A stretch of 64,000 bases of DNA from Actinomycetes bacterium (lineage in GTDB: Bacteria; Actinomycetota; Actinomycetes; JBBQFP01): contig JBBQFP010000008.1 of assembly GCA_038322045.1 (NCBI GenBank), positions 9,622 through 73,621 of the forward strand, in the 5' to 3' direction. Both the position numbers and the translations under genes were made by a program. The notes below the pieces were generated by a model. The model was not told the DNA's origin, did no database searches, and saw only the letters and a list, made by a program, of their open reading frames with translations. Shown here piece after piece: positions 4,296 through 63,622 of the stretch; positions within the stretch are counted from its first letter, which is position 1, and each line of letters opens with the position of its first letter.

Positions 4296-5237
4296 ATGCC
4301 CGGTATCGCGATCATCGGCAACGTCAACGCCGACGTCCTGGTCTCCCCGGTGACCCGACTTCCCGTCCCGGGGGGCGACCTGCTCGTCGACGACATCGGC
4401 TTTCGCACCGCCGGCGCAGCCGGCAACGCCTCACTGGCCCTGCACACCCTCGGGGTCGAACACCAGCTGGTAGGGGTCGTCGGAGACGACCCTTTCGGCC
4501 GTCTCATGTTCGAAGAACTCGAAGCCAAAGGCCTCGCCGATCACGTCGCTGTCATCCCCGGTGGACACAGCGGGGTCAGCATCTGCCTCGAGGCCCCGCA
4601 GCGGGAGCGCGCCTTCTTCACCTCACACGGAGTACTCGCCAACTTTTCGCGAAGCTCCATCCCGGTCACCGTCGTCGACAAGGCCATCGTTCTCCTGACC
4701 GGCTATTTCACGCTCCCCGGGCTACGCAACGGCGACGCCACATCATTGCTGCGCGACGTTCGAGCCGCCGGCGGACGCACGATGTTCGACACCGGCTGGT
4801 GCCCCGACGACTGGCCCGCCAGTTCCATCACCGAGGTACGTGATCTGCTACCCCTCGTCGATGTCTTCCTTCCCAACGACGCCGAAGCCGCCGCGCTGAC
4901 CAACGGGGCCCCCCCGGAAACGGCCGCACGCATCCTCGCTCGCCTCAGCCGCGGAACCGTTGTCGTCAAGATCGGCAAGGACGGCGCACTCGCCAGCCGA
5001 TCAGGAGCCTCGACGGTGCATGTGCCGGCTCCCGAGGTCAGCGTTCAAGACACCACCGGCGCCGGCGACTCCTTCGACGCGGGGTTCGCGGTGGCGCTGC
5101 TCCAGGGCGCGGATCTCCGCGGCTGTCTCGAGCTCGGGGTAGAACTTGCTTCGGAGTTGGTGAGCCGGCCCAGCCGCGACCGGTACGCCACCCCCGCCGT
5201 GATCGCCTGCCAACCGAGAGGAAGGGTGGAGGTCTAG
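4296..5237 (+). CDS. PfkB-family carbohydrate kinase
   Basis: MPGIAIIGNVNADVL... N-terminus, and a C-terminal DTTGAGDSFDAGF motif typical of ribokinase/PfkB kinases. Starts 1 nt after the SIS gene stop. Confidence 0.8.
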   Translation: MPGIAIIGNVNADVLVSPVTRLPVPGGDLLVDDIGFRTAGAAGNASLALHTLGVEHQLVGVVGDDPFGRLMFEELEAKGLADHVAVIPGGHSGVSICLEAPQRERAFFTSHGVLANFSRSSIPVTVVDKAIVLLTGYFTLPGLRNGDATSLLRDVRAAGGRTMFDTGWCPDDWPASSITEVRDLLPLVDVFLPNDAEAAALTNGAPPETAARILARLSRGTVVVKIGKDGALASRSGASTVHVPAPEVSVQDTTGAGDSFDAGFAVALLQGADLRGCLELGVELASELVSRPSRDRYATPAVIACQPRGRVEV

Positions 5238-5473
5238 GCAAGGAGTTGCGCCTACGACGGTGCATCGTCACCAGCGGGGGACGTCGAGTTCGTCGAGGAC
5301 GAGCAGTCTCTGGTGGCGCACGTCCGGCTCACCCGCGGGGTGTCGGGCTGGTGTGGGCGACGTCAGCGTCGTTCGCCTTGGTATGACCCTGGTGGGGGAC
5401 GGCAGGCTGACGGCGAGAGGTCACCATGGCCCATCTCCACGTCGAGCCTTGCCAGGACCTTGATCAGTTCGTT

Positions 5474-5519
5474 CTTGAATCCCTCAGAGGGGTCGTGGGT
5501 TCGAGTCCACAACGCAGCC
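5474..5519 (+). other. tRNA-like 3' fragment (T-loop box GGTTCGAGTCC), not a complete tRNA
   Basis: The sequence is CTTGAAT CCCTCAGAGGGGTC GTGGGTTCGAGTCCAC AACGCAGCC. The GGTTCGAGTCC box lies at 5498-5508. The T-stem is imperfect (4 bp, 8-nt loop) and no 5' half or acceptor partner is present. It sits in a 550-bp non-coding gap. Confidence 0.3.
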
Positions 5520-5789
5520 TGGATCAGTTCTTGCCTCGGACAGGGGCTCGGGAAGAGTCTCAGCCTTGACATACCGATCGCCGGTCGTCCGGCCGACGAC
5601 GTCGAGGTCCGCAGTCGGTCAACGACCCATCGGGAGCGTCACATGCGCGTTACGAGTGACATACCCGCTTGAGCTGTGCGGGTCGCGGGATCAGCCCTCC
5701 AGCTGTGTCAGCCAGAGGTGTGCCTGGAGATTCGCGTTCAGCTACATCTCCTCACCGCCTCACCATCAGGTTCCGGTCGGCCCGCTAGC

Positions 5790-16653: not shown

Positions 16654-18081
16654 TCAGTCGGCGTAGGTTGCTCCGAGTCGGTGCCCGTGCTCGGGTGTGG
16701 TGATCGGTAGGCCTGCTGTGGCCGCGTTGGGGAAGTCGTCGTCGACATGCACCAGGTCGACTCCGGCGGGCTCGAGCAGTGAGGCGCCTACCGAGGCTCG
16801 GAAGCCGCTGCCGCAGTAGATCCAAACCGGTCCATGCGCGGAGTTCTCCGTCACCCAGGCCGTGACCTCGTCGAGGCGCCCGCGGAGCTCGTGCAGGGGG
16901 ACATGCTTCGCCCCGGCGACGTAGCCGTTGTCGTACTCGCTGTTGCGGCGAAGGTCGAGCATGGGGAGGTGGGCATCGTTGGCGAGTGCCTCGGCCATCT
17001 CGACGTGGGTAGCCCGGCGATACGACGACAGCGGGGCGGTGCTGCTCGCCCAGTCGGCCGGTGAGCCGACGGCGTAGGCCGCGGGGCGGTCGATGCCGAT
17101 CCGGACCAGCTCGCGCTGCATGTCGCTGACCTCGTCCAGGGTGGCGCCGATCAGGGTGAGCGGGGTGCCCCAGTCGATGAGCCATCCGAGGTAGGTGATG
17201 GCGTTGCCGTGGACGTCGAAGGACAGCGAGCCCTTGATGTGCCCGGCGGCGAACAGGCGGCGGTGGCGCAGGTCGACGACCCACTCGCCCGCGGCCACGC
17301 GTCGGGCGATGTCCTGGGCGGTGGCAACCTGGGGGAGGGACAGGTCGATGGGGCCGCCGCCGGCCTGGTTGGCTGGGCCCATGTGGGCGTAGTACGCCGG
17401 GAACGCGTCGAGGCCGGCGATGAGCTCCGAGACGAACGTCTCCTCGTCGACGGTGAACGCCGGGTTGCTCGCGATCTGCTCGGCGAGGGTCGAGGCGGTG
17501 CCGACGGTGGCCGTGGCGCTGCAGAAGGACCCGAACCCGTGGGTGGGGTAGACCTGCGCGGACGGGCTCACGTCGACGGCGAGACGGCGCATCGAGTTCC
17601 ACTGTGCCCGGGCCAGCGGCTCGGTGAGCTCAGGCCCGAGCAGGTCGGGGCGCCCGACGCTGCCGAAGAGCAGAGAGCCTCCGGTGAACAGCGCGAGGTC
17701 CTGGCCCTCGACGTTGACGGCGAAGGAGATGTGGTTGGGCGTGTGCCCCGGGGTGTGGATCACCCGCACGAGCCCGAGGTCAGCGTCGATCTCAGCCTTG
17801 TCGCTGAGGCGGTGGGCGTGGAAGCCGATGTCCATGCCGTGGGGGACGGCGTACTCGGCTCCGAGGACGCGGGCGAGCTCGAGGCCGCCGCTGACGTAGT
17901 CGTTGTGGAAGTGGGTCTCCAGCACGTGCGAGACGGTCCAGCCTCTGTCGGCGAGGACGGCCTCGACGCGGTCGATGTCGCGCTGCGGGTCGATGACGAT
18001 GGCGCTCCCACCGCGTCCCACGACGTAGCTGCGGTCACCGAGGTTCGCGGTTTCGATCGAGACGACGTCGAGCGTGCTCAT
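16654..18081 (-). CDS. MBL-fold hydrolase fused to rhodanese domains (persulfide-dioxygenase/CstB-like)
   Basis: 475 aa. N-terminal metallo-beta-lactamase fold (ETHFHNDYVSGG, HTPGHTPNH). The C-terminal rhodanese region ends with the active-site loop YCGSGFRAS. ATGA overlap with the upstream rhodanese gene. Confidence 0.85.
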   Translation of the reverse strand: MSTLDVVSIETANLGDRSYVVGRGGSAIVIDPQRDIDRVEAVLADRGWTVSHVLETHFHNDYVSGGLELARVLGAEYAVPHGMDIGFHAHRLSDKAEIDADLGLVRVIHTPGHTPNHISFAVNVEGQDLALFTGGSLLFGSVGRPDLLGPELTEPLARAQWNSMRRLAVDVSPSAQVYPTHGFGSFCSATATVGTASTLAEQIASNPAFTVDEETFVSELIAGLDAFPAYYAHMGPANQAGGGPIDLSLPQVATAQDIARRVAAGEWVVDLRHRRLFAAGHIKGSLSFDVHGNAITYLGWLIDWGTPLTLIGATLDEVSDMQRELVRIGIDRPAAYAVGSPADWASSTAPLSSYRRATHVEMAEALANDAHLPMLDLRRNSEYDNGYVAGAKHVPLHELRGRLDEVTAWVTENSAHGPVWIYCGSGFRASVGASLLEPAGVDLVHVDDDFPNAATAGLPITTPEHGHRLGATYAD

Positions 18082-18473
18082 GAGGTTGCCACCTTTGCTC
18101 CAGCCGACACGAGGTCGGCATATCCACCGGACAGGTTGGAGACGTGGGTGAAGCCGGCCTTGCCCATGGCGTCGGACGCGATCGTCGATCGGCGTCCGCT
18201 ATGGCAGTACACGGCGTAGGTCGCGCTCTTGTCGAGCTTGGCGAGCCTCGCGTCGAACGTGGGTGCCTCGACGTCGACGTTGATGGCACCCTGGATGTGG
18301 CCAGCGGCGTACTCGGACGGGGTCCGCACGTCGACCGTGACCGCGCCTGACTGGGCTGCGGTCGTCAGGAAGGTCCGGGGGTCGACGGACTGGACGCTGC
18401 CTCCGCTAGAGCCGCAGCCGGTGAGCAGTGCGAGGCCGAACAGAGCGGCCAGCAGGACGAAGATCTTCTTCAC
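18078..18473 (-). CDS. Rhodanese-domain lipoprotein (sulfurtransferase)
   Basis: Lipoprotein signal MKKIFVLLAALFGLALLTGC and catalytic loop CHSGRRS. Confidence 0.8.
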   Translation of the reverse strand: MKKIFVLLAALFGLALLTGCGSSGGSVQSVDPRTFLTTAAQSGAVTVDVRTPSEYAAGHIQGAINVDVEAPTFDARLAKLDKSATYAVYCHSGRRSTIASDAMGKAGFTHVSNLSGGYADLVSAGAKVATS

Positions 18474-18482
18474 GTCTCTCCC

Positions 18483-18845
18483 CTAGATGATGGTCGGGGT
18501 GCTGCCGGGATCGGCAGTGACTGGGGCCCCTGCGTCGCGCCAGGCCTGCATGCCACCGGCGAGGTTGACGGCGTCGACGCCCGCGATGCGCAGCATCGAG
18601 GTCGCGAACGCCGATCGGCGGCCCGAGCGGCACACGGCGATGACCCGTCGCTGCCGGTCCATGGTGCTTGTCGACTCGGACAGCACGCCCATGGGGATGT
18701 GCACGGCGTGAGGGGCGTGCCCGGCGTCCCACTCCCTGGGCTCGCGGACGTCGAGGAGCAGGGCGTCGCCCTCCAGGAGCGATAGGGCCTCCTGGACGTC
18801 CACCGTCGGGACCTCGGGCTGCAGCGGCGCCAGTGCGTCGGTCAT
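18483..18845 (-). CDS. Rhodanese-domain protein
   Basis: The start is taken at the ATG giving MTDALAPLQ.... Catalytic loop CRSGRRS. 4-nt overlap with the upstream rhodanese gene. Confidence 0.75.
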   Translation of the reverse strand: MTDALAPLQPEVPTVDVQEALSLLEGDALLLDVREPREWDAGHAPHAVHIPMGVLSESTSTMDRQRRVIAVCRSGRRSAFATSMLRIAGVDAVNLAGGMQAWRDAGAPVTADPGSTPTII

Positions 18846-19174
18846 CGCGCGGCCGTCGAGTGCAGGCCGCTCGCCACCGGCATCCCTGCTGCACGCCACG
18901 CGGCCATGCCGCCGCTGACGCTGCGGACGTCGAAGCCGTGCTGCGCGAGATAGGCGCACGCCTGGGCCGATCGGCCACCAGATTCACAGACGACGTAGTA
19001 GGTCTCGGAGCGGCTGAGCTCGGACGTACGCAGCGGCACGATGGGCAGGGGCACGAACGTCGCTCCCCCGATGTGGCCGCGCTCGAACTCGTCGGCGTTG
19101 CGCACATCGATGAACGCGCCGCGGCGAAGCGCCCGGGCTTGAGCGGCTTCCTGGACGGTGACGGTCTGGATCAC
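18842..19174 (-). CDS. Rhodanese-domain protein
   Basis: GTG at 19174 overlaps the thioredoxin stop (GTGA). VIQTVTVQEAAQA..., catalytic loop CESGGRS. Confidence 0.75.
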   Translation of the reverse strand: MIQTVTVQEAAQARALRRGAFIDVRNADEFERGHIGGATFVPLPIVPLRTSELSRSETYYVVCESGGRSAQACAYLAQHGFDVRSVSGGMAAWRAAGMPVASGLHSTAAR

Positions 19175-19527
19175 GCCGAGGCCACCTTCGCCTTGACCTC
19201 GGTCATGTCGAGGTCGCGCACCTGCTGGATCAGGTCCTCGAGGGCCTTCGCCGGCAGCGCCCCGGCCTCGCGGTAGAGCAGGATCCCGTCGCGAAAGACC
19301 ATGAGCGTGGGGATGGCGGTGATCTGCGCGGTCGCGGCGAGTGACTGCTCGGCTTCCGTGTCGACCTTGCCGAACGTGATGTCGGGGTGGGTCTCGGATG
19401 CCTTCTCGAAGATGGGTGCGAAGGCGCGGCACGGGCCGCACCAGGAGGCCCAAAAGTCGACGAGCGTGACGCCGTCGCCGGTCGCCTCCTCCTCGAAGTT
19501 CTGTTCGGTCAACTGAACGGTGGCCAT
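19171..19527 (-). CDS. trxA: Thioredoxin
   Basis: MATVQLTEQNFEE...LVDFWASWCGPCRAFAP carries the WCGPC active site. A GGAGCAAGG ribosome-binding site lies upstream of the ATG at 19527. Confidence 0.9.
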   Translation of the reverse strand: MATVQLTEQNFEEEATGDGVTLVDFWASWCGPCRAFAPIFEKASETHPDITFGKVDTEAEQSLAATAQITAIPTLMVFRDGILLYREAGALPAKALEDLIQQVRDLDMTEVKAKVASA

Positions 19528-19567
19528 GCCTTGCTCCTTCCGACGGGTCCTGTGCAGACCATAACAG

Positions 19568-19585
19568 CATACCCCCAGGGGTATG
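19568..19585. promoter_or_regulatory. CsoR/CstR-family-type operator palindrome, upstream of the trx-rhodanese operon
   Basis: CATACCCC-CA-GGGGTATG, with 8-bp perfect arms, 40 nt upstream of the trx ATG in a non-coding gap. Confidence 0.6.
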
Positions 19586-19695
19586 TTCCCGGTCTCGTTG
19601 TGGAGTGGACGTGGGGTGCCCATACGCGGGAGCTGACGGCGCCTCGCCGACGGACACGTGAAGGATGCGACGTCCTGGATCTCCCCGCCGGCGAG

Positions 19696-20046
19696 TCAGT
19701 CGATGTCGGTGATGGCGGCCACCAACTCGGCAAGCGCGTCGAGGCCGCCCGTCCGGTAGGCGACCCAGTCCACGCCGGCACCGCGGTCGGTCAGCCGGTC
19801 CAGGTCCTCGCTCCAGACACGGCGCACAGGCGCGGCCACGAGGCCGGCGTCCTGCGCCGAACGTCGGGCCTGACGCGAAACCTCGTTCAAGGCGGCCCAG
19901 CGGCCTTCGTGGTACTTGACTCCGGGAGCCGAGGTTCCCGCACGGCTCAGAGAGCAGACAGCGACACCACCGGTCGCCGCATCCAGGTCCCGTCCGGCCT
20001 GGGCTAGAAGCTCGGTCAGCACGCCCTCGGACCGTCGCGCGGTCAC
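19696..20046 (-). CDS. Hypothetical protein (116 aa), translationally coupled to the CPxC membrane protein
   Basis: GTG at 20046 overlaps the upstream stop (GTGA). Non-repetitive sequence: ...GVKYHEGRWAALNEVSRQARRSAQDAGL.... No family recognised. Confidence 0.5.
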   Translation of the reverse strand: MTARRSEGVLTELLAQAGRDLDAATGGVAVCSLSRAGTSAPGVKYHEGRWAALNEVSRQARRSAQDAGLVAAPVRRVWSEDLDRLTDRGAGVDWVAYRTGGLDALAELVAAITDID

Positions 20047-20537
20047 GTCGATACGTCCGCGCGGGTCGATGACCGCGGAGTCACCGGACAGGAGCGCTCT
20101 CCTGCCAGTCGCCGGCGCAACGCGTAACCGAGAAGGAGCATGCCCGCGACCGCGAGGACGGGCTGCACCGGAGCGAACCACTGGACGGATCCGGCGGCCC
20201 CGAGTGCTAGCAGCGCGACCTTGTTGCAGACCGGGCAGCCGACCGCGAGGTAGGTGAGGAACCCACCGGCGAGGCTCGATCGTGACGAGCTGTCCGGCGG
20301 CAACTCTGCCGGTGAGTGCACGTACGTCGCCGTCACCAGGCCGGACAGCGCAGCCGTCACGAGCAGAACCGGCCAGGCCCACCACGTCGGAGCGACCGCC
20401 CGCCCGAACCACGGATTGGGGACCAGGACTGTGGGCACGCCGACGACGAGCACCATGAGGAGTGTTGCGCCCAGCGACACAGCCCAACGACGCGCAGGCC
20501 ACGTTCGCATCAGGGCAGCACCTCGAGAACCAAGCAT
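20043..20537 (-). CDS. Integral membrane protein with an intramembrane CPxC motif
   Basis: About 4 TM helices. AVGCPVCNKVALLALGAAG lies inside a predicted TM segment. The start is at 20537 or the ATG at 20510. Confidence 0.6.
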   Translation of the reverse strand: MLGSRGAALMRTWPARRWAVSLGATLLMVLVVGVPTVLVPNPWFGRAVAPTWWAWPVLLVTAALSGLVTATYVHSPAELPPDSSSRSSLAGGFLTYLAVGCPVCNKVALLALGAAGSVQWFAPVQPVLAVAGMLLLGYALRRRLAGERSCPVTPRSSTRADVST

Positions 20538-20540
20538 GTC

Positions 20541-20568
20541 GGCACGATACCCTAGGGGGTATCGTGCC
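20541..20568. promoter_or_regulatory. CsoR/CstR-family-type operator palindrome, upstream of the CPxC membrane protein gene
   Basis: GGCACGATACCCT-AG-GGGGTATCGTGCC. The 16-bp core is at 20547-20562, with one central mismatch. The arms extend to 12 bp. Confidence 0.55.
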
Positions 20569-21335: not shown

Positions 21336-21506
21336 GGTGTGCTCCTTCGACTGAGCCCGGCTGATGAGTCGGGTCGATGCGGTTGTTCGTCCACTGCTCA
21401 CGATGGGTCGGAGATCTGCATCCGGGATGTGGGCGATGTGGAGTTCCTGTGGAGATTCACCCGCGCGGACGCTGACACCGCTCTTGGCGCGGAGAGATTG
21501 GGCAGG

Positions 21507-22199
21507 ATGACAGGCGTGCCCACGATTCTGGTCGTCGAGGATGAACGCGACATTCGCGACCTTCTGCGTCGCTACCTCGAGCGCGCCGGTCATTGCGTGC
21601 TGAGCGCGTCCACGGGAGTCGAGGCGCTACGGATCCTCGAGGAGAGCCAGCCGGACCTGGTCCTGCTCGATCTCGGACTCCCGGACATCGACGGATTCGA
21701 TGTCCTCCGCACGGCGACGGCGACTTCTGTGCCGGTGATCGCGCTCACCGCGCGCAGCTCGGTCGAGGAGCGTATCGCCGGCCTCGAACGAGGAGCCGAT
21801 GACTACGTGACGAAGCCGTTCAGCCCGCGTGAGGTCGTGCTTCGGGTCAATGCGGTGCTCAGCCGGAACGACGTCCCGACAGACGTTGCGGTGGCCTCGT
21901 TCGGCGGGGGTCGGCTCACGATCGACACCGCACGGCACGTTGCGAGCCTGGACTCCGCGGATCTCGATCTCACTCCGACCGAGTGGGGGTTGCTCACGAC
22001 CCTGGCCGGCACCCCGGGGCGGGTCTTCTCACGCAGTGAGCTGGTCAACCGCGTTCGCGGCTACGCGTTCGCCGGATATGAACGAACCATCGATTCGCAC
22101 GTCAAGAACCTGCGCCACAAGCTCGGTTCGGACGGGGCGCAGATCCTTGAGACGGTACTCGGCGTCGGCTACCGACTGGGACTCAACCGTGACCACTGA
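21507..22199 (+). CDS. OmpR-family response regulator
   Basis: ILVVEDERDIRDLL...DLVLLDLGLPDIDG receiver domain, plus the winged-helix C-terminus ...LETVLGVGYRL. Confidence 0.9.
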   Translation: MTGVPTILVVEDERDIRDLLRRYLERAGHCVLSASTGVEALRILEESQPDLVLLDLGLPDIDGFDVLRTATATSVPVIALTARSSVEERIAGLERGADDYVTKPFSPREVVLRVNAVLSRNDVPTDVAVASFGGGRLTIDTARHVASLDSADLDLTPTEWGLLTTLAGTPGRVFSRSELVNRVRGYAFAGYERTIDSHVKNLRHKLGSDGAQILETVLGVGYRLGLNRDH

Positions 22200-23571
22200 G
22201 CCGCGACGCGGGCTCGGCCCGCTGGGACACCGCCTGCTTGCCGCGTTCGTCCTGGTCGCGCTGTCCTCCGTCGCCGTGCTCACGATTGCCGCGCTCGTTG
22301 GCACGGCCCGAGGGTTCGCGGCGGGGGAGGCGGCCGACCGCAGGGCTGCCGCGGCAGGAGCGTCATCGGCCGCCGCCGACGCGTACTCCCGTGCCGGGGG
22401 ATGGGACAGCGCCGATCTCTCGAGTGCCGACACCATCGCTGCCACAGCTGGCGCCCGCTTGGCGGTGCGTGACACGAACGGAACGGTGGTCAGATCCCCG
22501 AACGGTTCCACGATGGGCAACGGCATGGGTGGCATGGGCACGGCCGCGGGTTCCGGTGCCGTCGTCGCACCGGTGGTCGTGGACGGTGCGACGGTCGGAA
22601 CGGTCCGGCTCGCCTTCGGTTCTGCGTCTGCGGGCTCTGCGCAGCAGATCGCCTGGACGTGGATCCTCCTCTCGGCGGTGGCGGCGCTCGTCACGGCGCT
22701 CCTGGTGTCCTGGTACGTCACCCGCCGGATCTCACGACCCTTGGTCCGACTGTCCGTGACGACGCGTGCATTCGCGGCCGGGGACCGGTCGGCTCGGGCC
22801 GCAGCAGAAGACGTGTCCGCTCCCGGAGAGCTCGGTGAGCTCGCCCGAGCATTCGATGCCACCGCGAATGATGTCGAGAGATCTGAGATCGCCCGGCGCC
22901 ATATGGCTGCTGATCTCGCCCACGAGCTGCGAACACCGCTGGCCGCCCTGCAAGCAGGCCTCGAGGAGTTGCGCGATGGGTTCGTCGCGTCGGACCAACA
23001 GCGCCTTGCGGCTCTGCACGACCAGTCGCGCCGCGTGGCTCGAGTCGTTGACGACCTGGCCGAGCTCTCGGCTGCGGAGACGGCCTCCCTCTCGCTGCGT
23101 CGTAGCGAGGTCGACCTCGGCTCGCTGGTCGAGGACGCGATATCGGCTGCCCGCCCGGCAATGTCCGCGGCGGGGCTCGCGGTCGAGGCGCAACTCTCAC
23201 CTGGGGTGGTCGTGGACGGCGACCTGGACCGCCTGCATCAGGTGGTCGGGAATCTCTTGAGCAACACGGCGCGGCACTGTCGTCGCGGCGACACGGTGAC
23301 CGTGTCGGTGACGCGTCAGGATCCGTTCGCCGTTCTCGTTGTCGCGGACACCGGTCCGGGCATCGACGCGGCCGACCTGCCGTCGGTTTTCGACCGGCTC
23401 TGGCGGGGGCGCGCGGATGTCGATGCCGCCGGCTCGGGCATAGGACTCGCGGTGGTCCGCGAGCTGGTCAACGCACACGGAGGCACGGTCTCCGCCTCGT
23501 CGGACGGTCGGAGCGGCTCGGAGTTCACGGTCCGGCTCCCGTTGGCACCCGCTTCCGCGCAACGAAACTAG
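22189..23571 (+). CDS. Sensor histidine kinase (TM-HAMP-HisKA-HATPase)
   Basis: The GTG start overlaps the end of the response-regulator gene. H-box MAADLAHELRTPLAAL. The ATPase region has VADTGPGI and GSGIGLAVVRELV. Confidence 0.85.
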   Translation: MTTEPRRGLGPLGHRLLAAFVLVALSSVAVLTIAALVGTARGFAAGEAADRRAAAAGASSAAADAYSRAGGWDSADLSSADTIAATAGARLAVRDTNGTVVRSPNGSTMGNGMGGMGTAAGSGAVVAPVVVDGATVGTVRLAFGSASAGSAQQIAWTWILLSAVAALVTALLVSWYVTRRISRPLVRLSVTTRAFAAGDRSARAAAEDVSAPGELGELARAFDATANDVERSEIARRHMAADLAHELRTPLAALQAGLEELRDGFVASDQQRLAALHDQSRRVARVVDDLAELSAAETASLSLRRSEVDLGSLVEDAISAARPAMSAAGLAVEAQLSPGVVVDGDLDRLHQVVGNLLSNTARHCRRGDTVTVSVTRQDPFAVLVVADTGPGIDAADLPSVFDRLWRGRADVDAAGSGIGLAVVRELVNAHGGTVSASSDGRSGSEFTVRLPLAPASAQRN

Positions 23572-23650: not shown

Positions 23651-24469
23651 TTACGGGGAGCCCGCGGCACGGACCCGATCCAGGATGCGCGCTGGGATGA
23701 CGTCGTCCGGGTCGCGCCGGTTGCTGAGGGTCGTGTGGACTCCTACGAGGCCCGCGTAGAGCGGCGGGCACGTCGGGCAGGCAGCGAGGTGCTGCTCGAG
23801 CAGCCCTCGCTCGCGCTCGGAGAGCTCGGCGTCGATGTAGTCGGACACCTTGCTGCGTGCGTCCCAGCACCGCATCGGCACTCCCGAAGGGAAGACGTGG
23901 TCCGACGGTCGGGCCAGCTCGGTGACGAGCATCATGCGGCCGCGTCGAAGCCGCTGCTTGGCCGCCGGGAGGCTGACCTGCTGGATCTCGGCGACCTGGG
24001 GCATGGTGAGGCCTTCAGCGTCGTGCAGCACGACAGCCGATCGATAGCCGACCGGTAGGCGCATGAGCCCGTCCTGGAGGCGCTCGCGCACCTCGGCCGC
24101 CTCGAGCACCACTGCGGCGTCGACGGTGTAGGTGTCGTCCTGCCAGAGCAGCTCGACGTGGCCAGCCACGTCCTCGGTGAGGTCAAGGGTGGCTTCTCGA
24201 ACCTTGCGTCCGCGGTCGACGGCGACGTTGTGCAGGATCCGGTGAAGCCACGTGGTCAGCGACGATTCACCGCGGAAGGTTGTTGCCTTCTCCAACGCTC
24301 GAACGACGGTGTCCTGCACGAGGTCTTCGGCCTGCCTGGAGTCGCGCACCAGGGTGCGCGCGTAGCGGAGCAGGCCCGGCACCTCCTCGACCAGCCGGTC
24401 CGCGATCTCATCGCTGCTGGCAGGCACCTCGCCCGAGGCCGCGCCGGACACGGCCACGGTCAGTGGCAC
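23651..24469 (-). CDS. ECF sigma factor with a C-terminally fused ZAS (zf-HC2) anti-sigma-like domain
   Basis: Region 2 (DLVQDTVVRALEK...TWLHRILHNVAVDRGR) and region 4 (GLTMPQVAEIQQVSLPAAKQRLRRGR) are followed by MRCWDARSKVSDYIDAELSERERGLLEQHLAACPTCPPLY, which has the H-x3-C-x2-C signature. Confidence 0.8.
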   Translation of the reverse strand: MPLTVAVSGAASGEVPASSDEIADRLVEEVPGLLRYARTLVRDSRQAEDLVQDTVVRALEKATTFRGESSLTTWLHRILHNVAVDRGRKVREATLDLTEDVAGHVELLWQDDTYTVDAAVVLEAAEVRERLQDGLMRLPVGYRSAVVLHDAEGLTMPQVAEIQQVSLPAAKQRLRRGRMMLVTELARPSDHVFPSGVPMRCWDARSKVSDYIDAELSERERGLLEQHLAACPTCPPLYAGLVGVHTTLSNRRDPDDVIPARILDRVRAAGSP

Positions 24470-24579
24470 ATACAGCGGTTCTCCTGCGGCACGTTACGCA
24501 GGACCTGGTCCACGTGCATGCCACAACCGGAGTAGGTGACCTTGCCACACGAACGACAGACGGCGGGACTGCACATCAT
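24460..24579 (-). CDS. 39-aa cysteine-rich mini-protein (paralog A)
   Basis: MMCSPAVCRSCGKVTYSGCGMHVDQVLRNVPQENRCMCH. A GAGAAGAGG ribosome-binding-site-like element lies upstream. The operator is 22 nt upstream. The stop overlaps the ECF sigma start by 10 nt. A paralog lies at 25811. Confidence 0.6.
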   Translation of the reverse strand: MMCSPAVCRSCGKVTYSGCGMHVDQVLRNVPQENRCMCH

Positions 24580-24601: not shown

Positions 24602-24639
24602 GTGACAACAGCATACCCCAGGGGGTATGCTGTTGTCAC
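24602..24639. promoter_or_regulatory. Extended perfect palindrome containing the CsoR/CstR-type operator core
   Basis: GTGACAACAGCATACCCC-AG-GGGGTATGCTGTTGTCAC: 18-bp perfect arms with a 2-nt spacer. The core ATACCCCAGGGGGTAT is at 24613-24628. Confidence 0.65.
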
Positions 24640-24652
24640 ATTCATCCAGCGA

Positions 24653-24877
24653 TCAGCGACCAGAGGTCCCACTCACGGCTTCCTTGTTCGTGCGGATGCC
24701 GAGGAGTCGGTACAGCGGGCAGAACCCGATGGCGGCCGTGACCAGCAGGATCCCTGCAACAACGGCGAGGACGATACCGAGGACGCTGGAGATGCCGACG
24801 ACGATGGCAGCGATGGCTACGACGACGCCGCCGACGGCGCGCAGCATCCGATCGAGGTTGCTCTCGTTGGTGAACAT
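24653..24877 (-). CDS. DUF2892 (YgaP C-terminal-like) small membrane protein
   Basis: 74 aa, two TM helices ending in GFCPLYRLLGIRT, the hallmark DUF2892 motif. GAAAGGA ribosome-binding site. Confidence 0.7.
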   Translation of the reverse strand: MFTNESNLDRMLRAVGGVVVAIAAIVVGISSVLGIVLAVVAGILLVTAAIGFCPLYRLLGIRTNKEAVSGTSGR

Positions 24878-24979
24878 GGTGGGTCCTTTCCTAGGGGTCT
24901 GCTGCATGGACGTTCGACCGGCCCGAAGCGATACATCGGGTCTGGCAGCCCCCCGCAGTGGGGGAGAGGAGCGGTGGTC

Positions 24980-25810: not shown

Positions 25811-25978
25811 ATGTGCCGACAGGTGACGTGCCGTAAGTGCGGGAACGCGACGTGGTCTGGCTGTGGCCAGCATGTCGACCAGGTGATGCGCGGAGTGCCG
25901 AAGTCCAAGCGCTGCGTGTGCCCGCCCACGCCCTCGCTCGTCGAGCGCCTTTTCGGAGGCCGCAAGGCGAAGGTCTGA
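25811..25978 (+). CDS. 55-aa cysteine-rich mini-protein (paralog B)
   Basis: MCRQVTCRKCGNATWSGCGQHVDQVMRGVPKSKRCVCPPTPSLVERLFGGRKAKV. 22 of 38 aligned residues match paralog A, with all six Cys and the His conserved. Confidence 0.6.
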   Translation: MCRQVTCRKCGNATWSGCGQHVDQVMRGVPKSKRCVCPPTPSLVERLFGGRKAKV

Positions 25979-27850: not shown

Positions 27851-28081
27851 TCAACCGTGGGAGCGCAGGATCATCCGGGTCATCCTCAGACTCACCGCCG
27901 CGAAGCGGTATGCCTGCACGGGCAAGTTGTTACGCATCTTGATCGTGCGCTCCGTGGGCATCGGTGCCTCATAGGCAGCCGGCTCGGTGAGTCCGGCGGC
28001 TGGGCCGCGCGGTTGGTCGGCGGGGGTCTGGGACGGGGTGGCGGTCATGGTGTCCTCGTTGCTCGAAGTCGCGTGGCTCAT
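27851..28081 (-). CDS. Small hypothetical protein translationally coupled to the SQR-like gene
   Basis: 76-aa ORF whose ATG overlaps the sqr stop (ATGA at 28078-28081). The C-terminal part is non-low-complexity (TIKMRNNLPVQAYRFAAVSLRMTRMILRSHG). No family recognised. Confidence 0.4.
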   Translation of the reverse strand: MSHATSSNEDTMTATPSQTPADQPRGPAAGLTEPAAYEAPMPTERTIKMRNNLPVQAYRFAAVSLRMTRMILRSHG

Positions 28082-29535
28082 TCGGGGATCATCGACCAGC
28101 CGACCTTGCCCTTGGCCTTGTAGATGAACAGGACGTGCAGCAGGTGCTTCATCCAGTGACCGGCGAGCCCGATCTCCCCCGTGGTCTCGGTGAGGCTGCG
28201 GCCGTACCCGGGGAACTTGTCATAGTCAGGAACCACGGGGAACATCGTCATCGACGCGGCGCTGCCCTTGGTGAACCCGACGCCGGCGGAGGCGACGCAC
28301 GCGGCACCCATGTTCGCCATAGAGGCGCGGTGCTCGGGTGCTCCCGCCTTGCCGGTGATCATGTCGGTGATGCTCATCGCGACCGCACGCCCCATGAGCC
28401 CCGACGGCATCCCGGTTCGCGGCGGGGCGGGGGAGATGACGGTGCCGTTGGGGGCCTTGCGCGGGACGGAGATCGGGTGCGGCGGTGCGAAGGCAATCCC
28501 GACGCCGAACACGTTGGGGTACTTCGGGCTGACGTAGGTGCTCGGCCAGTCCGAGGCCTTCCAGTCCTCCATCGGCTTGGCCGTGTAGTCGGCGTCGACC
28601 TTGAGGAACCCGTTGGGCGCGAAGACCTCGGCGGTGATCTCGGTTCCCTCGCGGTCGAAGGCCTGGAGGTCTACGCCACGGAACGGGGGGAGGAGCATGG
28701 CGAAGTCGAAGTCCAGGCTGTCTTCGGAGCCGTCGAGGGTCTCGTAGAAGAGCTTGCCCTCCTCCACGCGTTGTACGTGGGCGCGCAGGATGGACTTCAC
28801 GCCGCGCTCCTTGAACAGCGACTCGGTCCACAGCTTGCTGCTGGTCACGAAGCCGTTCTGCTTGAAGGTCAGTCCGCCGACACCGAAGTCGCCGAGCTCG
28901 TACTCGTTGGACAGGTAGACGACGTCGGCGAGCTCGCGCAGGCCGCGCGATCGCAGCTCATGCTCGACGTTGAAGGCGTACTCGAACGCCGCGCCCTCGC
29001 ACGTGCAGGTGCCGTGCCCGACGCCGATCACGAGTCGTTGGGGAGTGCCCGACTTGAGCTTGCGGATGACCTCGGCGAGCGCAGTCGCGGCCTGCTCCGC
29101 GTGGCCGGAGGTGCAGACCGACACGGTGTGCCCGTCCGGGCCGAGACCGGGAGTGGCGCCGAAGTTCAGCTTCGGGCCGGTGGCGTTGACGAGGTAGTCG
29201 TACTCGATGCACTGGGTCTCGCCCGCGCGCGTCGGGTCGGTAAAGACGACGTCGATGAAGCCCTTGCGCGTGTTGTCGTCGCCCTCGGGGTGCAGCGCGA
29301 CAGCCTTGGCCTGGCGGAAGTCGATGCCGTGCTTGTCGTAGACCGGCTTGAGCGGGAACGTCACCTGCTTGGCCTTCATCCGCCCGACCCCGACCCAGAT
29401 GTTCGACGGGATCCAGTTCCACTGCGAGTTCGGCGACACCACGATCACCTCGTGGGTCTTGTCGAGCAGGCGGCGCAAGTGCAGGGCTGCGGTGTGGCCG
29501 GAGATGCCGGCTCCCATCACGACGACGCGAGCCAT
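28078..29535 (-). CDS. sqr: Sulfide:quinone oxidoreductase-like FAD-dependent pyridine-nucleotide-disulfide oxidoreductase
   Basis: 485 aa. The N-terminal FAD fold is MARVVVMGAGISGHTAA. Length and layout are typical of SQR-type flavoproteins. It is preceded by an operator and a CstR-like repressor gene. Confidence 0.75.
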   Translation of the reverse strand: MARVVVMGAGISGHTAALHLRRLLDKTHEVIVVSPNSQWNWIPSNIWVGVGRMKAKQVTFPLKPVYDKHGIDFRQAKAVALHPEGDDNTRKGFIDVVFTDPTRAGETQCIEYDYLVNATGPKLNFGATPGLGPDGHTVSVCTSGHAEQAATALAEVIRKLKSGTPQRLVIGVGHGTCTCEGAAFEYAFNVEHELRSRGLRELADVVYLSNEYELGDFGVGGLTFKQNGFVTSSKLWTESLFKERGVKSILRAHVQRVEEGKLFYETLDGSEDSLDFDFAMLLPPFRGVDLQAFDREGTEITAEVFAPNGFLKVDADYTAKPMEDWKASDWPSTYVSPKYPNVFGVGIAFAPPHPISVPRKAPNGTVISPAPPRTGMPSGLMGRAVAMSITDMITGKAGAPEHRASMANMGAACVASAGVGFTKGSAASMTMFPVVPDYDKFPGYGRSLTETTGEIGLAGHWMKHLLHVLFIYKAKGKVGWSMIPE

Positions 29536-29579: not shown

Positions 29580-29595
29580 TTACCCCTGGGGGTAT
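29580..29595. promoter_or_regulatory. CsoR/CstR-family-type operator palindrome, upstream of sqr
   Basis: TTACCCC-TG-GGGGTAT, 44 nt upstream of the sqr ATG at 29535. Confidence 0.55.
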
Positions 29596-29727: not shown

Positions 29728-29997
29728 TCAGGCCAGCGACAGGAAGAGCTTCTCGAGGCGTGAACGATCCATGGGCGGGGGATCGCCGGCCGACTCGGCC
29801 TCGATGCACTGCTGCAGTCCGCAGGCGACGATGGTGAAGGCGGCACGGTCGACGGCCTTCGAGGCGGCCGAGAGCTGGGTGACGATGTCCTCGCAGCTGC
29901 GGCCGCTCTCGATCATCGCGAGGACGCCCTCGATCTGGCCACGGGCTCGGCGCAGGCGTGCGGCGACGGACTTGGCGGACTCGGTGTCGAGCTGCAT
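29728..29997 (-). CDS. CsoR/RcnR-family repressor lacking the Cu-ligand His (CstR-like persulfide-sensor candidate)
   Basis: MQLDTESAKSVAARLRRARGQIEGVLAMIESGRSCEDIVTQLSAASKAVDRAAFTIVACGLQQCIE. It aligns colinearly with the CsoR at 60691. The two Cys are conserved, and the His of EHLSHC is replaced by Gly (ACGLQQC). GAGGAG ribosome-binding site. Confidence 0.8.
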   Translation of the reverse strand: MQLDTESAKSVAARLRRARGQIEGVLAMIESGRSCEDIVTQLSAASKAVDRAAFTIVACGLQQCIEAESAGDPPPMDRSRLEKLFLSLA

Positions 29998-60580: not shown

Positions 60581-60663
60581 AACCATCCGGCAGTCTCACC
60601 ACGACGGACCCCGCCCTCCCGGCGGGGTCCGTCGTCGTGTCAGGGAGCGGGCGCTGGCGCGTC

Positions 60664-60680
60664 ATACCCCAGGGGGGTAC
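60664..60680. promoter_or_regulatory. CsoR operator variant (17 bp), upstream of csoR-copZ-copA
   Basis: ATACCCC-AGG-GGGGTAC has a 3-nt spacer and a TAC end. It lies 10 nt upstream of the csoR GTG. Confidence 0.6.
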
Positions 60681-60690
60681 CCTCGACGAC

Positions 60691-60981
60691 GTGGACCTCG
60701 CCCCTGGTTACGCCGGCACGAAGGACGCCCAGCTCAAGCGGCTGAGGCGGATCGAGGGTCAGGTCCGTGGGCTGCAGCGCATGCTCGAGGACGACACCTA
60801 CTGCATCGACGTCCTCACGCAGGTCTCCGCTGCCACCCGGGCGCTGGAGTCCTTCGCCCTGGCCCTCCTCGACGAGCACCTGTCCCACTGCGTCACCCAC
60901 GCGATCGAGGCCGGCGGCGAGGAGGCCGAGGTCAAGCTCAAGGAGGCCAGTGCCGCCATCGCGCGCCTCGTCCGCAGCTGA
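60691..60981 (+). CDS. csoR: Copper-sensing repressor CsoR
   Basis: ...[54 protein letters not shown] has the canonical C...H-x3-C Cu(I) ligand set. Followed by copZ and copA. Confidence 0.85.
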
Positions 60982-61077
60982 CCGACGCTGCTCCACCCGG
61001 CCGCCACCCATCAGCTCGTCAGCGTGTCCGTCATCCCAGTTCCCGTCAGTTCCCGTCAGATCAACCGAGGAGTTCTT

Positions 61078-61296
61078 ATGAGCGCGACGACGACGTACCA
61101 GGTCGAAGGCATGACGTGCGGTCACTGCGTCAAGGCTGTGACCGACGAGATCAGCGCCCTGCCGGGCGTGTCCTCGGTCGATGTGCAGCTCGTCGAGGGC
61201 GGCGTCTCCCCAGTCGCCGTCACCTCCGAGGAGCCGTTGAGCCACGAGCAGGTCTACGGCGCCGTCGATGAGGCCGGGTACGTCCTCGTCGGCTGA
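61078..61296 (+). CDS. copZ: Heavy-metal-associated copper chaperone CopZ
   Basis: MSATTTYQVEGMTCGHCVKAVTDEI carries the MxCxxC HMA motif. 72 aa. GAGGAG ribosome-binding site. Confidence 0.85.
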   Translation: MSATTTYQVEGMTCGHCVKAVTDEISALPGVSSVDVQLVEGGVSPVAVTSEEPLSHEQVYGAVDEAGYVLVG

Positions 61297-61357
61297 GCCG
61301 ACCGCCAGCCGGCTGCGCTAGCAGCAGCCGCCCGCACCGCAGAGCAAGGAGCCCGTC

Positions 61358-63622
61358 ATGACCGTCGTTCCGCAGGCCGCCCCCGCCTCGGTGGATCTCG
61401 TCATCGGCGGGATGACCTGTGCGTCGTGCGCCGCCCGCATCGAGAAGAAGCTCAACCGGATGCCCGGTGTCGAGGCCACGGTCAACTACGCGACCGAGAA
61501 GGCGCGCGTCACCTTCGGCGACGGGGTGACCCCCGCGGACCTCGTCGCCACCGTCCTCGCCACCGGGTACACCGCGGCGCTCCCGGCGCCGCCGGAGGCC
61601 GAGCAGCCCGACGTCGCCGATCAGGCGGCCCCCGACGACCACGCCGAGGCCTGGCGGACCCGGCTGCGGATCTCCTTGGCGCTCACCGTGCCCGTGGTGC
61701 TGCTCGCCATGGTGCCCTTTCTGCAGTTCGACAGCTGGCAGTGGCTCTCGCTCACCCTCGCGTCACCGGTCGTCGTCTGGGGGGCGCTGCCTTTCCACCG
61801 GGCGGCCTGGACGAACCTCCGTCACGGTGCCGCGACGATGGACACCCTCATCTCCGTCGGTGTGGGGGCGGCGTACCTCTGGTCGCTGTGGGCCCTGTTC
61901 GTCGGCGACGCCGGCATGCCCGGGATGCGCATGAGCTTCACGCTGCTGCCCGCCCAGGGCGCCGGCCGAAACGACATCTACCTCGAGGTCGCCAGCGCCG
62001 TCACGGTCTTCATCATCGCCGGCCGGTACGCCGAGGCCCGGGCGAAGACCCGGTCGGGTGCGGCCCTGCGCGCGCTCCTGGGGATGGGTGCCAAGGACGT
62101 CGCCGTCCTCCGGGACGGAGTGGAGCACCGGGTCCCCGTGGGCCAGCTCGCCGTCGGAGACGTCTTCGTCGTCCGTCCGGGGGAGAAGCTGGCGACCGAC
62201 GGAGTCGTCGTCGAGGGCTCGTCGGCGATCGACGCGTCGATGCTCACCGGCGAGCCGGTGCCCGTCGAGGTCGCGGCCGGCGACGCCGTCGTCGGCGCCA
62301 CGGTCAACGCCGGCGGCAGGCTCGTCGTCCGCGCGACGAGGGTCGGTGCCGACACGCAGCTCGCGCAGATGGCGCGGCTCGTCGACGAGGCGCAGAGCGG
62401 CAAGGCCGAGGTCCAGCGGCTGGCCGACCGGGTCAGCGGCGTCTTCGTGCCGGTGGTCGTCGTCCTCGCGCTGCTCACGCTCGCCGGCTGGCTGCTCACC
62501 GGTGCCTCGGCGGCGACAGCGTTCACCGCGGCGGTCGCCGTCCTCATCATCGCCTGCCCGTGCGCCTTGGGGCTGGCGACGCCGACGGCGCTGCTCGTCG
62601 GGACAGGTCGCGGGGCCCAGCTCGGGGTCCTCATCCGGGGCCCGCAGGTGCTCGAGTCGACGCGGCGGGTCGACACGATCGTTCTGGACAAGACCGGCAC
62701 GGTGACGACCGGCCGGATGACCTTGACCGACGTCGTCGCCGGCCCGGGTGAGATCGAGGGGGACGTCCTGCGCCTGGCCGGTGCGGTCGAGCACGCCTCC
62801 GAGCACCCCATCGCCCGCGCCGTCGCCGCCGCCGCGGCCGCGGCGGGGACTCTGCCGGGCGTGGAGTCGTTCCAGTCGCAGGGCGGCCTCGGGGTCTTCG
62901 GCGTCGTCGAGGGCCGCGCCGTGGCCGTCGGACGAGCGTCGTGGCTGCGCGAGCAGTGGGCCCTCGAGATGTCCGAGGCGCTGGTCGCAGCCGTCGAGGC
63001 GGCGCAGGACCAGGGCCGGACGCCGGTCCTCGTCTCGTGGGACGGCGCGGTCCGCGGGCTCGTCGTCGTCGCCGACGTCGTCAAGCCGACGTCGAGGACG
63101 GCTGTCGAGGAGCTGCGGGGCCTGGGGCTGCGCCCGGTCCTGCTCACCGGCGACAACTCCCGCGCTGCGCACGCTGTCGCCGCCCAGGTCGGCATCGCAC
63201 CGGAGGACGTCGTCGCCGAGGTGCTCCCGGCCGACAAGGTCGACGTCGTCAAGCGGCTCCAGGCCAACGGTGCCGTCGTCGCCATGGTGGGCGACGGGGT
63301 CAACGACGCCGCCGCGCTGGCGACGGCGGACCTCGGGCTCGCGATGGGCACCGGCACCGACGTCGCCATCGAGGCCTCGGACATCACGCTCGTCAGGGGC
63401 GACCTCCGCGCGGCTGTCGATGCCATCCGCCTCGCGCGCTCGACGCTGCGGACCATCAAGGGCAACCTGTTCTGGGCGTTCGCCTACAACGTCGCGGCGT
63501 TGCCGCTCGCGGCATTCGGGCTGCTCAACCCGCTCATCGCGGGCGCAGCCATGGCGTTCAGCAGCGTCTTCGTCGTGACCAACAGCCTGCGTCTGCGCAG
63601 GTTCAGGGGCGTTGCGGGCTGA
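61358..63622 (+). CDS. copA: Copper-translocating P1B-type ATPase CopA
   Basis: N-terminal [21 protein letters not shown] motif [13 protein letters not shown], phosphorylation site DKTGTVT, and [12 protein letters not shown] hinge. Confidence 0.9.

Follow-up and report, generated by a model that had tools for sequence, protein, structure and literature searches.

How does a bacterium control a sigma factor of the extracytoplasmic function (ECF) type when an anti-sigma domain appears to be part of the same polypeptide? This question is raised by a gene on the reverse strand of contig JBBQFP010000008.1 of an Actinomycetes bacterium (GCA_038322045.1), of which a stretch of 64,000 nucleotides (nt), called the window in the following, was analysed. 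The gene product is termed sigma-ZAS here, after its C-terminal extension, which resembles the zinc-binding anti-sigma (ZAS) proteins. We propose that sigma-ZAS is a single-chain sigma/anti-sigma unit in which the C-terminal 75 residues form a soluble, RsrA-like zinc-binding ZAS domain. Taken with the full chain of steps described below, this proposal has in our view an even chance of being correct.

Domain structure and spread of sigma-ZAS

The gene and the domains of its product were located at the following positions (pLDDT, predicted local distance difference test of the AlphaFold2 model).

23651..24469, reverse strand: ECF sigma factor with fused ZAS domain; 272 amino acid residues and stop, GTG start (Pfam, NCBIfam and homologue alignment)
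24194..24391, reverse strand: sigma region 2, residues ~27-92 (Pfam Sigma70_r2; pLDDT 82-95)
23909..24091, reverse strand: sigma region 4, residues ~127-187 (Pfam Sigma70_r4_2 at 129-181; Foldseek)
23654..23875, reverse strand: predicted C-terminal ZAS or class I anti-sigma-like domain, residues 199-272; C201-x25-H227-x3-C231-x2-C234, four predicted helices, no transmembrane segment

The sigma core was analysed with the profiles of Pfam and NCBIfam. In the 272-residue protein Sigma70_r2 was matched at residues 30-89 (E 1.3e-15) and Sigma70_r4_2 at residues 129-181 (E 1.6e-10), both above the gathering scores, which bears out the initial annotation of an open reading frame with sigma regions 2 and 4. 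With these two regions and without regions 1.1 or 3, the protein belongs to the ECF (group 4) sigma factors. The alternative in-frame start codons at V5 and V7 still lie upstream of region 2. The ECF superfamily model TIGR02937 was the sole NCBIfam model that scored over its cut-off (71.3 bits against 42.9). The named equivalogs, including SigH, SigE, SigM and SigW, all remained far under theirs, and the SigH/SigR equivalog TIGR02947 gave 55.5 bits against a cut-off of 251.55. In a sequence search of the PDB the core was most similar to SigH and SigE. The top Foldseek matches of the AlphaFold2 model were ECF sigma factors, and region 4 was matched to the region 4 domains of SigL, SigE and SigR with target-normalised TM-scores of 0.76-0.81.

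The C-terminal extension contains the peptide MRCWDARSKVSDYIDAELSERERGLLEQHLAACPTCPPLY and hence the H-x3-C-x2-C signature that had been noted before. The ZAS motif is complete, since an upstream Cys or His ligand is found in addition at the expected distance of about 23-26 residues before the His. In the full-length protein the Pfam family zf-HC2 was matched at residues 203-234 (E 3.4e-8, above the gathering score), and the extension alone matched it with an E value of 2.6e-9. The NCBIfam model antisig_RsrA (TIGR03988) was matched by the extension at E 1.7e-6 with 28 bits, under its cut-off of 62.5, and the anti-sigma-E model was also matched under its cut-off. The sole sequence match of the extension in the PDB was RslA, a ZAS protein of M. 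tuberculosis (3hug_B), which was weakly matched at E 0.004-0.007. The protein has three cysteines in total, C201, C231 and C234, which are all located within the extension; the linker between sigma2 and sigma4 has none. The zinc ligands of RsrA, C11, H37, C41 and C44, show the same C-to-H spacing of 26.

An alignment was made with 118 of the 120 best database matches. C201, H227, C231 and C234 were invariant, together with W202, R205 and the PPLYA stretch. The C-to-H spacing was 26 in all 118 homologues, and between the end of region 4 and C201 each of them has 21-24 residues. The mean column identity was 0.80 in the ZAS region, 0.77 in region 2 and 0.81 in region 4. When the alignment was used for AlphaFold2, region 2, region 4 and the start of the ZAS domain were well folded, with pLDDT values of more than 90 for region 4 and of about 80-84 for the first ZAS helices. 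Four ZAS helices were predicted at residues 201-212, 218-230, 235-250 and 260-269 with pLDDT values of 54-88. After the CxxC motif the tail has about 38 residues in the window protein and 37-43 in most members, and no transmembrane segment was detected in residues 188-272 (maximum Kyte-Doolittle 19-residue mean 0.98). Because of the short tail and the missing transmembrane segment, the protein is predicted to be cytoplasmic. As read from the sequence, one chain comprises an ECF core and a complete CHCC-type ZAS domain. Beyond the stop codon a histidine kinase gene, which runs convergently, reaches its 3' end and no other gene is found, so no separate anti-sigma gene follows, as had been stated in the initial annotation.

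All of the 120 best matches have the same three-domain architecture with about 255-273 residues, and a scan of one genome per species found sigma-ZAS in at least 415 species-level genomes. Locus counts in the following refer to the best 80 of these at least 415 loci unless stated otherwise. The 80 loci belong nearly all to the Actinomycetota (Nanopelagicales, Micrococcales including Dermatophilaceae, Propionibacteriales, Kineosporiaceae and others), and a single small contig among them is labelled Hyphomicrobiales. The nearest relative of the window protein, with 76% identity, is encoded in a metagenome-assembled genome of Candidatus Nanopelagicales. Remoter single-chain proteins, for example of Arthrobacter, have 30-40% identity, 250-290 residues, the C-x25-H-x3-C-x2-C motif and short tails; their RefSeq name is only "sigma-70 family RNA polymerase sigma factor". 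By sequence comparison, sigma-ZAS is a member of a large conserved family rather than a unique fusion.

The DUF2892 gene and its ECF-type promoter

For the region upstream of the sigma gene, an operator and a mini-gene had been described initially. Both are present, but a DUF2892 gene and a conserved ECF-type promoter had been overlooked.

24653..24877, reverse strand: small membrane protein of the DUF2892 / YgaP-like_TM type; 74 residues, two hydrophobic helices, GFCPLY Cys motif (Pfam PF11127, E 1.7e-18)
24909..24934, reverse strand: ECF-type promoter GTATCgcttcgggccggtcgaaCGTC; -35 GTATC, 17-nt spacer, -10 CGTC, 31 nt before the DUF2892 start codon

The first sign of DUF2892 was an enrichment of word pairs upstream of the sigma genes, which was traced to its coding sequence. 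In 77 of the 80 loci a DUF2892 homologue is located directly upstream of sigma-ZAS on the same strand, and the cysteine of the CP[LI]Y motif is kept in nearly all of the approximately 75 DUF2892 homologues listed. No match to DUF2892 was found in the PDB. In a sigma-ZAS relative with 40% identity a DUF2892-type gene is still adjacent and the two genes overlap. In the Arthrobacter loci L086 and L087 (37% identity, positions 4690-5768) the YgaP-like_TM gene still adjoins sigma-ZAS but is inverted and divergent. That the linkage survives this rearrangement argues for a functional tie between DUF2892 and sigma-ZAS. The intergenic region of the two Arthrobacter loci retains a CGTCtaac -10-like element and has a different -35.

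The promoter was found to be conserved with the gene. In 69 of 74 loci the DUF2892 gene is preceded by GTATC-N(14-20)-CGTC, with a spacer of exactly 17 nt in 64 of the 69. Its fuller form reads GTATC(C)-N17-CGTC(t/c)atg and lies mostly 31-46 nt before the DUF2892 start. When both strands of 807 kilobases (kb) of related loci were searched for GTATC-N17-CGTC, 67 of the 73 occurrences were at the DUF2892 promoter position. The 64-kb window contains the extended motif once in exact form, and the relative with 40% identity has the variant GTACA-N17-CGTCta. An ECF promoter under autoregulation is usually recognised by such a two-part motif, in which the spacer is fixed and the -10 reads CGTC, before the operon of the sigma factor itself. 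We regard autoregulation and the linkage to DUF2892 as highly probable. On the sequences compared, the cassette of GTATC-N17-CGTC promoter, DUF2892 and sigma-ZAS is conserved across the Actinomycetota and is the ancestral form.

Another kind of target, the SigR/SigH-type promoter GGAAY-N17-19-GTT, was rejected; 5 copies were found against 2.1 expected, and none of them precedes the DUF2892-sigma operon. At locus L029 two more copies of the GTATCCCT-N-CGTCaatg promoter were observed at positions 5422 and 2657 (reverse strand). One is located before a second DUF2892 paralogue and the other is divergent from the main operon, and the genes behind them are candidate regulon members. An Rfam scan of 19-31 kb of the window returned no RNA family.

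The operator, the mini-gene and the sulfide genes

Between DUF2892 and sigma-ZAS a putative operator and a short gene were located, and a candidate repressor is encoded further upstream.

24602..24639, no strand assigned: putative CsoR/CstR-type operator; perfect 18-nt inverted repeat, core ATACCCC-N2-GGGGTAT
24460..24579, reverse strand: Cys-rich mini-gene A; 39 residues from the ATG at 24579, 38 residues from the ATG at 24576, MCSPAVCRSCGKVTYSGCGMHVDQVLRNVPQENRCMCH
29728..29997, reverse strand: candidate repressor of the CsoR family (Pfam PF02583, E 7.5e-21); Cys35 and Cys64, in addition Cys59

The palindrome, initially described as the strongest operator palindrome, consists of two perfect 18-nt arms and exceeds in length every other perfect inverted repeat in 20-31 kb of the window. 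It overlaps a sigma-70-like promoter GTGACA-18-TATGCT (24639..24610, reverse strand), and within its arms lies a site of the form ATACC-N6-GGTAT at 24613-24628. The proposed CsoR/CstR operator class finds good support, by analogy, in the sites of ScCsoR, the polysulfide-sensing two-Cys repressor of S. coelicolor, which read ATACC-N6-GGTAT (PMC7533328). Polysulfide causes ScCsoR to leave its sites, and the targets of ScCsoR are pdo-tauE and a rhodanese gene (PMC7533328). In the window, ATACCC-N4-GGGTAT was found 5 times against 0.34 expected, at 19569, 20547, 24613, 25754 and 29580, and a 17-nt variant is located at 60664.

The operator at 19569-19584 belongs to an operon (16654-19623, reverse strand) that codes for a thioredoxin, two rhodaneses and a CstB/PDO-like MBL-rhodanese fusion, which resembles a persulfide dioxygenase. 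The operator at 29580-29595 sits between the candidate repressor gene and a gene for an SQR-like pyridine-nucleotide-disulfide oxidoreductase (28078-29535, reverse strand), which lies behind it. This operon and the SQR-like gene together look like a complete set for the detoxification of sulfide and persulfide. At the position of the Cu(I) ligand, four residues before Cys64 (-4), the candidate repressor lacks a His, and in this respect it is CstR/ScCsoR-like. The gene content behind the operators points to the persulfide-sensing type rather than to the copper-sensing type.

Further genes were observed behind such sites. A predicted membrane protein of 164 residues with a GCPVCNK motif is encoded at 20043-20537 (reverse strand) behind the operator at 20547-20562, which has perfect 14-nt arms; no Pfam family was found for this protein. 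At about 60660-63622 (forward strand) the window has genes for a RicR-like copper CsoR (149.9 bits against the RicR cut-off of 175), a CopZ-like protein with an HMA domain and a P-type ATPase (CopA), preceded by the 17-nt variant operator ATACCCCAGGGGGGTAC. Because the copper-type and the persulfide-type CsoR systems have near-identical operator half-sites in the window, the question of cross-talk is raised. The sequence GGAAC-[operator]-GTT at 19563-19589 (reverse strand) resembles a SigR/SigH-type promoter. An extended palindrome AAC...GTT surrounds the operator, and this match before the thioredoxin operon, one of the 5 copies counted above, is probably a by-product of it and less probably an overlapping ECF promoter.

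In the family, at least one operator was found in 38 of the 80 loci, against 0.9 expected, and homologues of CstR-like proteins, rhodanese, PDO, SQR or thioredoxin in 37. The operator lies not more than 400 nt upstream of the sigma gene in 12 loci. Nine loci (L001-L005, L008, L012, L016 and L044) have in common the order DUF2892, operator, mini-gene, sigma gene. From these gene orders the operator, with its own sigma-70-like promoter, and the mini-gene look as if they had been inserted into an older cassette in this lineage, between DUF2892 and sigma-ZAS. One of the nine loci, L044, encodes a natural triple fusion of ECF sigma, ZAS and rhodanese (protein P0051, 405 residues) and has five operators. 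In the closest metagenome-assembled genome (L082, 10823-19534) sigma-ZAS is followed by genes for TauE, Hdr-like Fe-S/FAD oxidoreductases, DsrE, FlpD, TusA and another CsoR-family protein; the corresponding side in the window is occupied by a convergent two-component system (21339-23571) instead.

The mini-gene had been described with 39 codons. This length is obtained from the first ATG, but the second ATG at 24576, which gives 38 residues, is favoured since it matches the MCSP start of the homologues and is better placed relative to the GAAGAGG ribosome-binding site. The overlap of 10 nt with the sigma gene was recovered as described (stop codon at 24462-24460, sigma GTG at 24469). The same overlap is found in L001 and L003, and because of it the two genes are probably translationally coupled. 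A paralogue, mini-gene B (25811-25978, forward strand, 55 residues), likewise lies directly behind an ATACCCC-N2-GGGGTAT operator. The invariant residues of the mini-proteins are M1, C2, C7, C10, G11, G17, C18, G19, H21, R34 and C35. The family comprises at least 2548 clusters at 90% identity, mostly of 52-57 residues; no Pfam or NCBIfam model was found for it, none of these clusters is annotated, and the names, where sources give any, are nearly always 'hypothetical protein'. The mini-proteins are possibly metal- or sulfur-binding peptides of a CstR-type regulon.

Proposed control of sigma-ZAS and comparison with known systems

A close parallel to sigma-ZAS is the SigR-RsrA / SigH-RshA switch (ECF12) of thiol-oxidative stress. 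Both have a SigH/SigE-like core, a soluble CHCC ZAS domain and apparent autoregulation. In ECF12, however, the anti-sigma factor is encoded by a separate downstream gene, whereas sigma-ZAS is one polypeptide, has the promoter GTATC-N17-CGTC instead of GGAAT-N18-GTT and the partner gene DUF2892, and scores far under both the SigH and the RsrA equivalog cut-offs.

Fusions of zf-HC2 to the C-terminus of ECF sigma factors are known from ECF48, ECF52 (SCO4117) and ECF53, which occur in actinobacteria only (PMC8999054, PMC5826349). In these groups transmembrane helices and long extracytoplasmic parts of up to about 400 residues come after the ZAS domain, and a proteolytic release has been proposed (PMC8999054, PMC5826349). 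Sigma-ZAS shares with them the zf-HC2 domain fused to an ECF core but differs, by their descriptions, in having neither a transmembrane helix nor a long extension after the ZAS domain. The fused ZAS domain as such is already known, and compared with the described membrane-anchored groups the soluble, DUF2892-paired form would be a new variation. In the literature searched, no experimental work was found on a soluble sigma-ZAS fusion or on the pairing with DUF2892.

Like CorE/CorE2 and ECF287/ECF288, sigma-ZAS is a one-component ECF whose C-terminal extension contains cysteines, and no anti-sigma gene accompanies it. In the current ECF classification ECF287 is listed as an actinobacterial group with a "Cys-rich C-terminal extension" (PMC7826278). 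In CorE/CorE2 (ECF238) the Cys-rich extension has about 20-38 residues, is activating and works together with a CxC in the linker (PMC8999054, PMC7826278). In contrast, the extension of sigma-ZAS is by sequence a complete ZAS domain, and its linker has no Cys.

With the systems of CstR (S. aureus) and ScCsoR the window shares the ATACC-N6-GGTAT operator and a two-Cys CsoR-family protein without the Cu(I) His, as well as genes for rhodanese, a persulfide dioxygenase-like and an SQR-like protein, to which the closest metagenome-assembled genome adds TauE (PMC7533328). Unlike these regulons as described in the literature searched, the operator in the window, for which we infer repressor binding, fronts a sigma factor and a Cys-rich mini-protein, and DUF2892 adjoins. 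No sigma factor was found described inside a CstR-type regulon in this literature.

Two-layer control of sigma-ZAS, which had been suggested initially, is plausible by analogy, because the operator-fronted sulfur genes share the motif and a two-Cys CsoR-family gene lies near. In the first step, the repressor encoded at 29728-29997 would occupy the operator at 24602-24639 and would be released by persulfide or polysulfide, as are ScCsoR and CstR, so that the mini-gene and sigma-ZAS would be transcribed. In the second step, the fresh protein would be inactive, with the zinc-bound ZAS domain (C201/H227/C231/C234) covering the surfaces that bind RNA polymerase. By analogy, region 4 would be contacted by ZAS helix 1 and region 2 by helix 4. 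The zinc would then be expelled, and the sigma core freed, once the cysteines are oxidised, persulfidated or alkylated. In the fourth step, the free sigma factor would take RNA polymerase to the GTATC-N17-CGTC promoter and thereby raise DUF2892 and, by read-through, its own synthesis. DUF2892 would be the main conserved output or partner of sigma-ZAS. In favour of this chain are the precedent of ScCsoR, the natural sigma-ZAS-rhodanese fusion P0051 and a DUF2892 gene of Azospira, which was among the most abundant transcripts and was induced about 10-fold by H2S (PMC5358917).

For a clamp in cis we count the predicted four-helix unit, which is complete and resembles an anti-sigma domain (ASD), the RsrA-like CHCC subclass and the fixed linker. 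A further point is that the factors nearest to the core, SigH and SigE, work with ZAS proteins as partners. In class I pairs, ASD helix 1 is the helix that binds sigma4, and soluble ASDs carry zinc motifs especially often (PMC7406223). The conservation of the ZAS region, as high as that of regions 2 and 4, the nearly fixed distance between region 4 and C201 and the position of helix 1 directly after region 4 fit a constrained cis geometry, as far as the sequence can tell. That inhibition occurs in cis and is relieved by thiol chemistry stands at an even balance in our judgement.

Several observations weigh against this proposal. AlphaFold2 gave no confident docking of the ZAS domain; the predicted TM-score (pTM) was 0.39 for the full-length protein and 0.47 for sigma4 with ZAS, low values by which no confident relative placement of ZAS and sigma domains is assigned, a result that falls short of a negative one. 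The pLDDT was only 54-76 for ZAS helices 3-4, and Foldseek, run with either model against the PDB, recognised sigma domains but no ASD. The 64-kb window has no convincing second target promoter. Which of the two CsoR-family proteins of the window binds the operator has been assigned from the gene neighbourhood only. In the family, about half of the loci have no CstR-type operator or sulfur genes within 6 kb; for this reason the sulfide link is to be called frequent but not universal. Finally, the ZAS motif can be purely structural, as in RsiW, and is no proof of redox sensing (PMC7406223).

The last point leads to the strongest rival, in which the ZAS domain inhibits in cis with a structural zinc site, and release occurs by regulated proteolysis or through DUF2892 by membrane sequestration or thiol exchange. 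The non-sensing CHCC site of RsiW (PMC7406223) and the proteolysis proposed for the fused-ZAS groups ECF48/52/53 (PMC8999054) speak for it, as does DUF2892 itself, which is the most conserved neighbour (77/80), is kept even inverted in Arthrobacter and carries a conserved Cys. Proteolysis fits poorly, however, with an extension that has no transmembrane segment and with a neighbourhood in which no protease gene is conserved. In addition, the frequent zinc motifs of soluble ASDs agree with redox sensing in the cytoplasm (PMC7406223), and the position of DUF2892 at the head of the operon is equally explained by a simple output gene. We consider this rival unlikely.

In the second rival, the Cys/His extension would activate or license the sigma factor in a manner like that of CorE/CorE2 (ECF238), such that a metal- or redox-dependent folding of the C-terminus is needed for binding to the promoter or to the core enzyme; activity would then require an occupied site. 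Activating Cys-rich C-terminal extensions of ECF sigma factors are documented (PMC8999054, PMC7826278), the AlphaFold2 models lack a confident inhibitory docking, and the extreme conservation of the extension is expected of a functionally needed part. Against this, the extension is by sequence and prediction a full four-helix ZAS/ASD-like domain of about 75 residues with the C-x25-H-x3-C-x2-C motif and matches the anti-sigma models (zf-HC2, RsrA, RslA), whereas a CorE-type Cys cluster of 20-38 residues and a CxC in the sigma2-sigma4 linker are both missing. An activating role is therefore quite doubtful. An assembly or frameshift artefact joining two genes, considered solely because sigma and ZAS anti-sigma genes are usually adjacent, is ruled out by the conserved single open reading frame, the fixed linker in 118 sequences, the at least 415 loci and the occurrence in complete genomes (Pengzhenrongella NZ_CP144210).

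Beyond the single-chain sigma/anti-sigma unit, DUF2892 and sigma-ZAS could form an autoregulated two-gene module of Actinomycetota that senses reactive sulfur species or thiol stress directly via the three cysteines. Through the Cys of DUF2892 a sulfur signal from the membrane or from outside the cytoplasm would then reach the ZAS domain, or DUF2892 would be the dedicated protective output. We put this idea forward tentatively and regard it as somewhat unlikely.

Among sigma factors, the ECF proteins that carry a regulatory domain of their own are the "one-component systems", and experiments have been made on very few of them. Sigma-ZAS offers a compact, testable case, with a soluble protein of about 260 residues, three cysteines, the defined promoter GTATC-N17-CGTC and the near-invariant partner DUF2892. 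In about half of the genomes examined it is physically linked to sulfide/persulfide regulons of the CstR type. A failure of the model would leave the family as another uncharacterised ECF group. If the cis clamp and the thiol switch hold true, sigma factors would join the repressors as persulfide sensors, and DUF2892, possibly together with the Cys-rich mini-proteins, would be placed in a physiological setting; sigma-ZAS could moreover be used in synthetic circuits as a minimal orthogonal redox-gated sigma factor. Should the two-gene sulfur-sensing module also prove true, it would provide the first persulfide-linked ECF sigma factor and the first function of a standalone DUF2892 protein.

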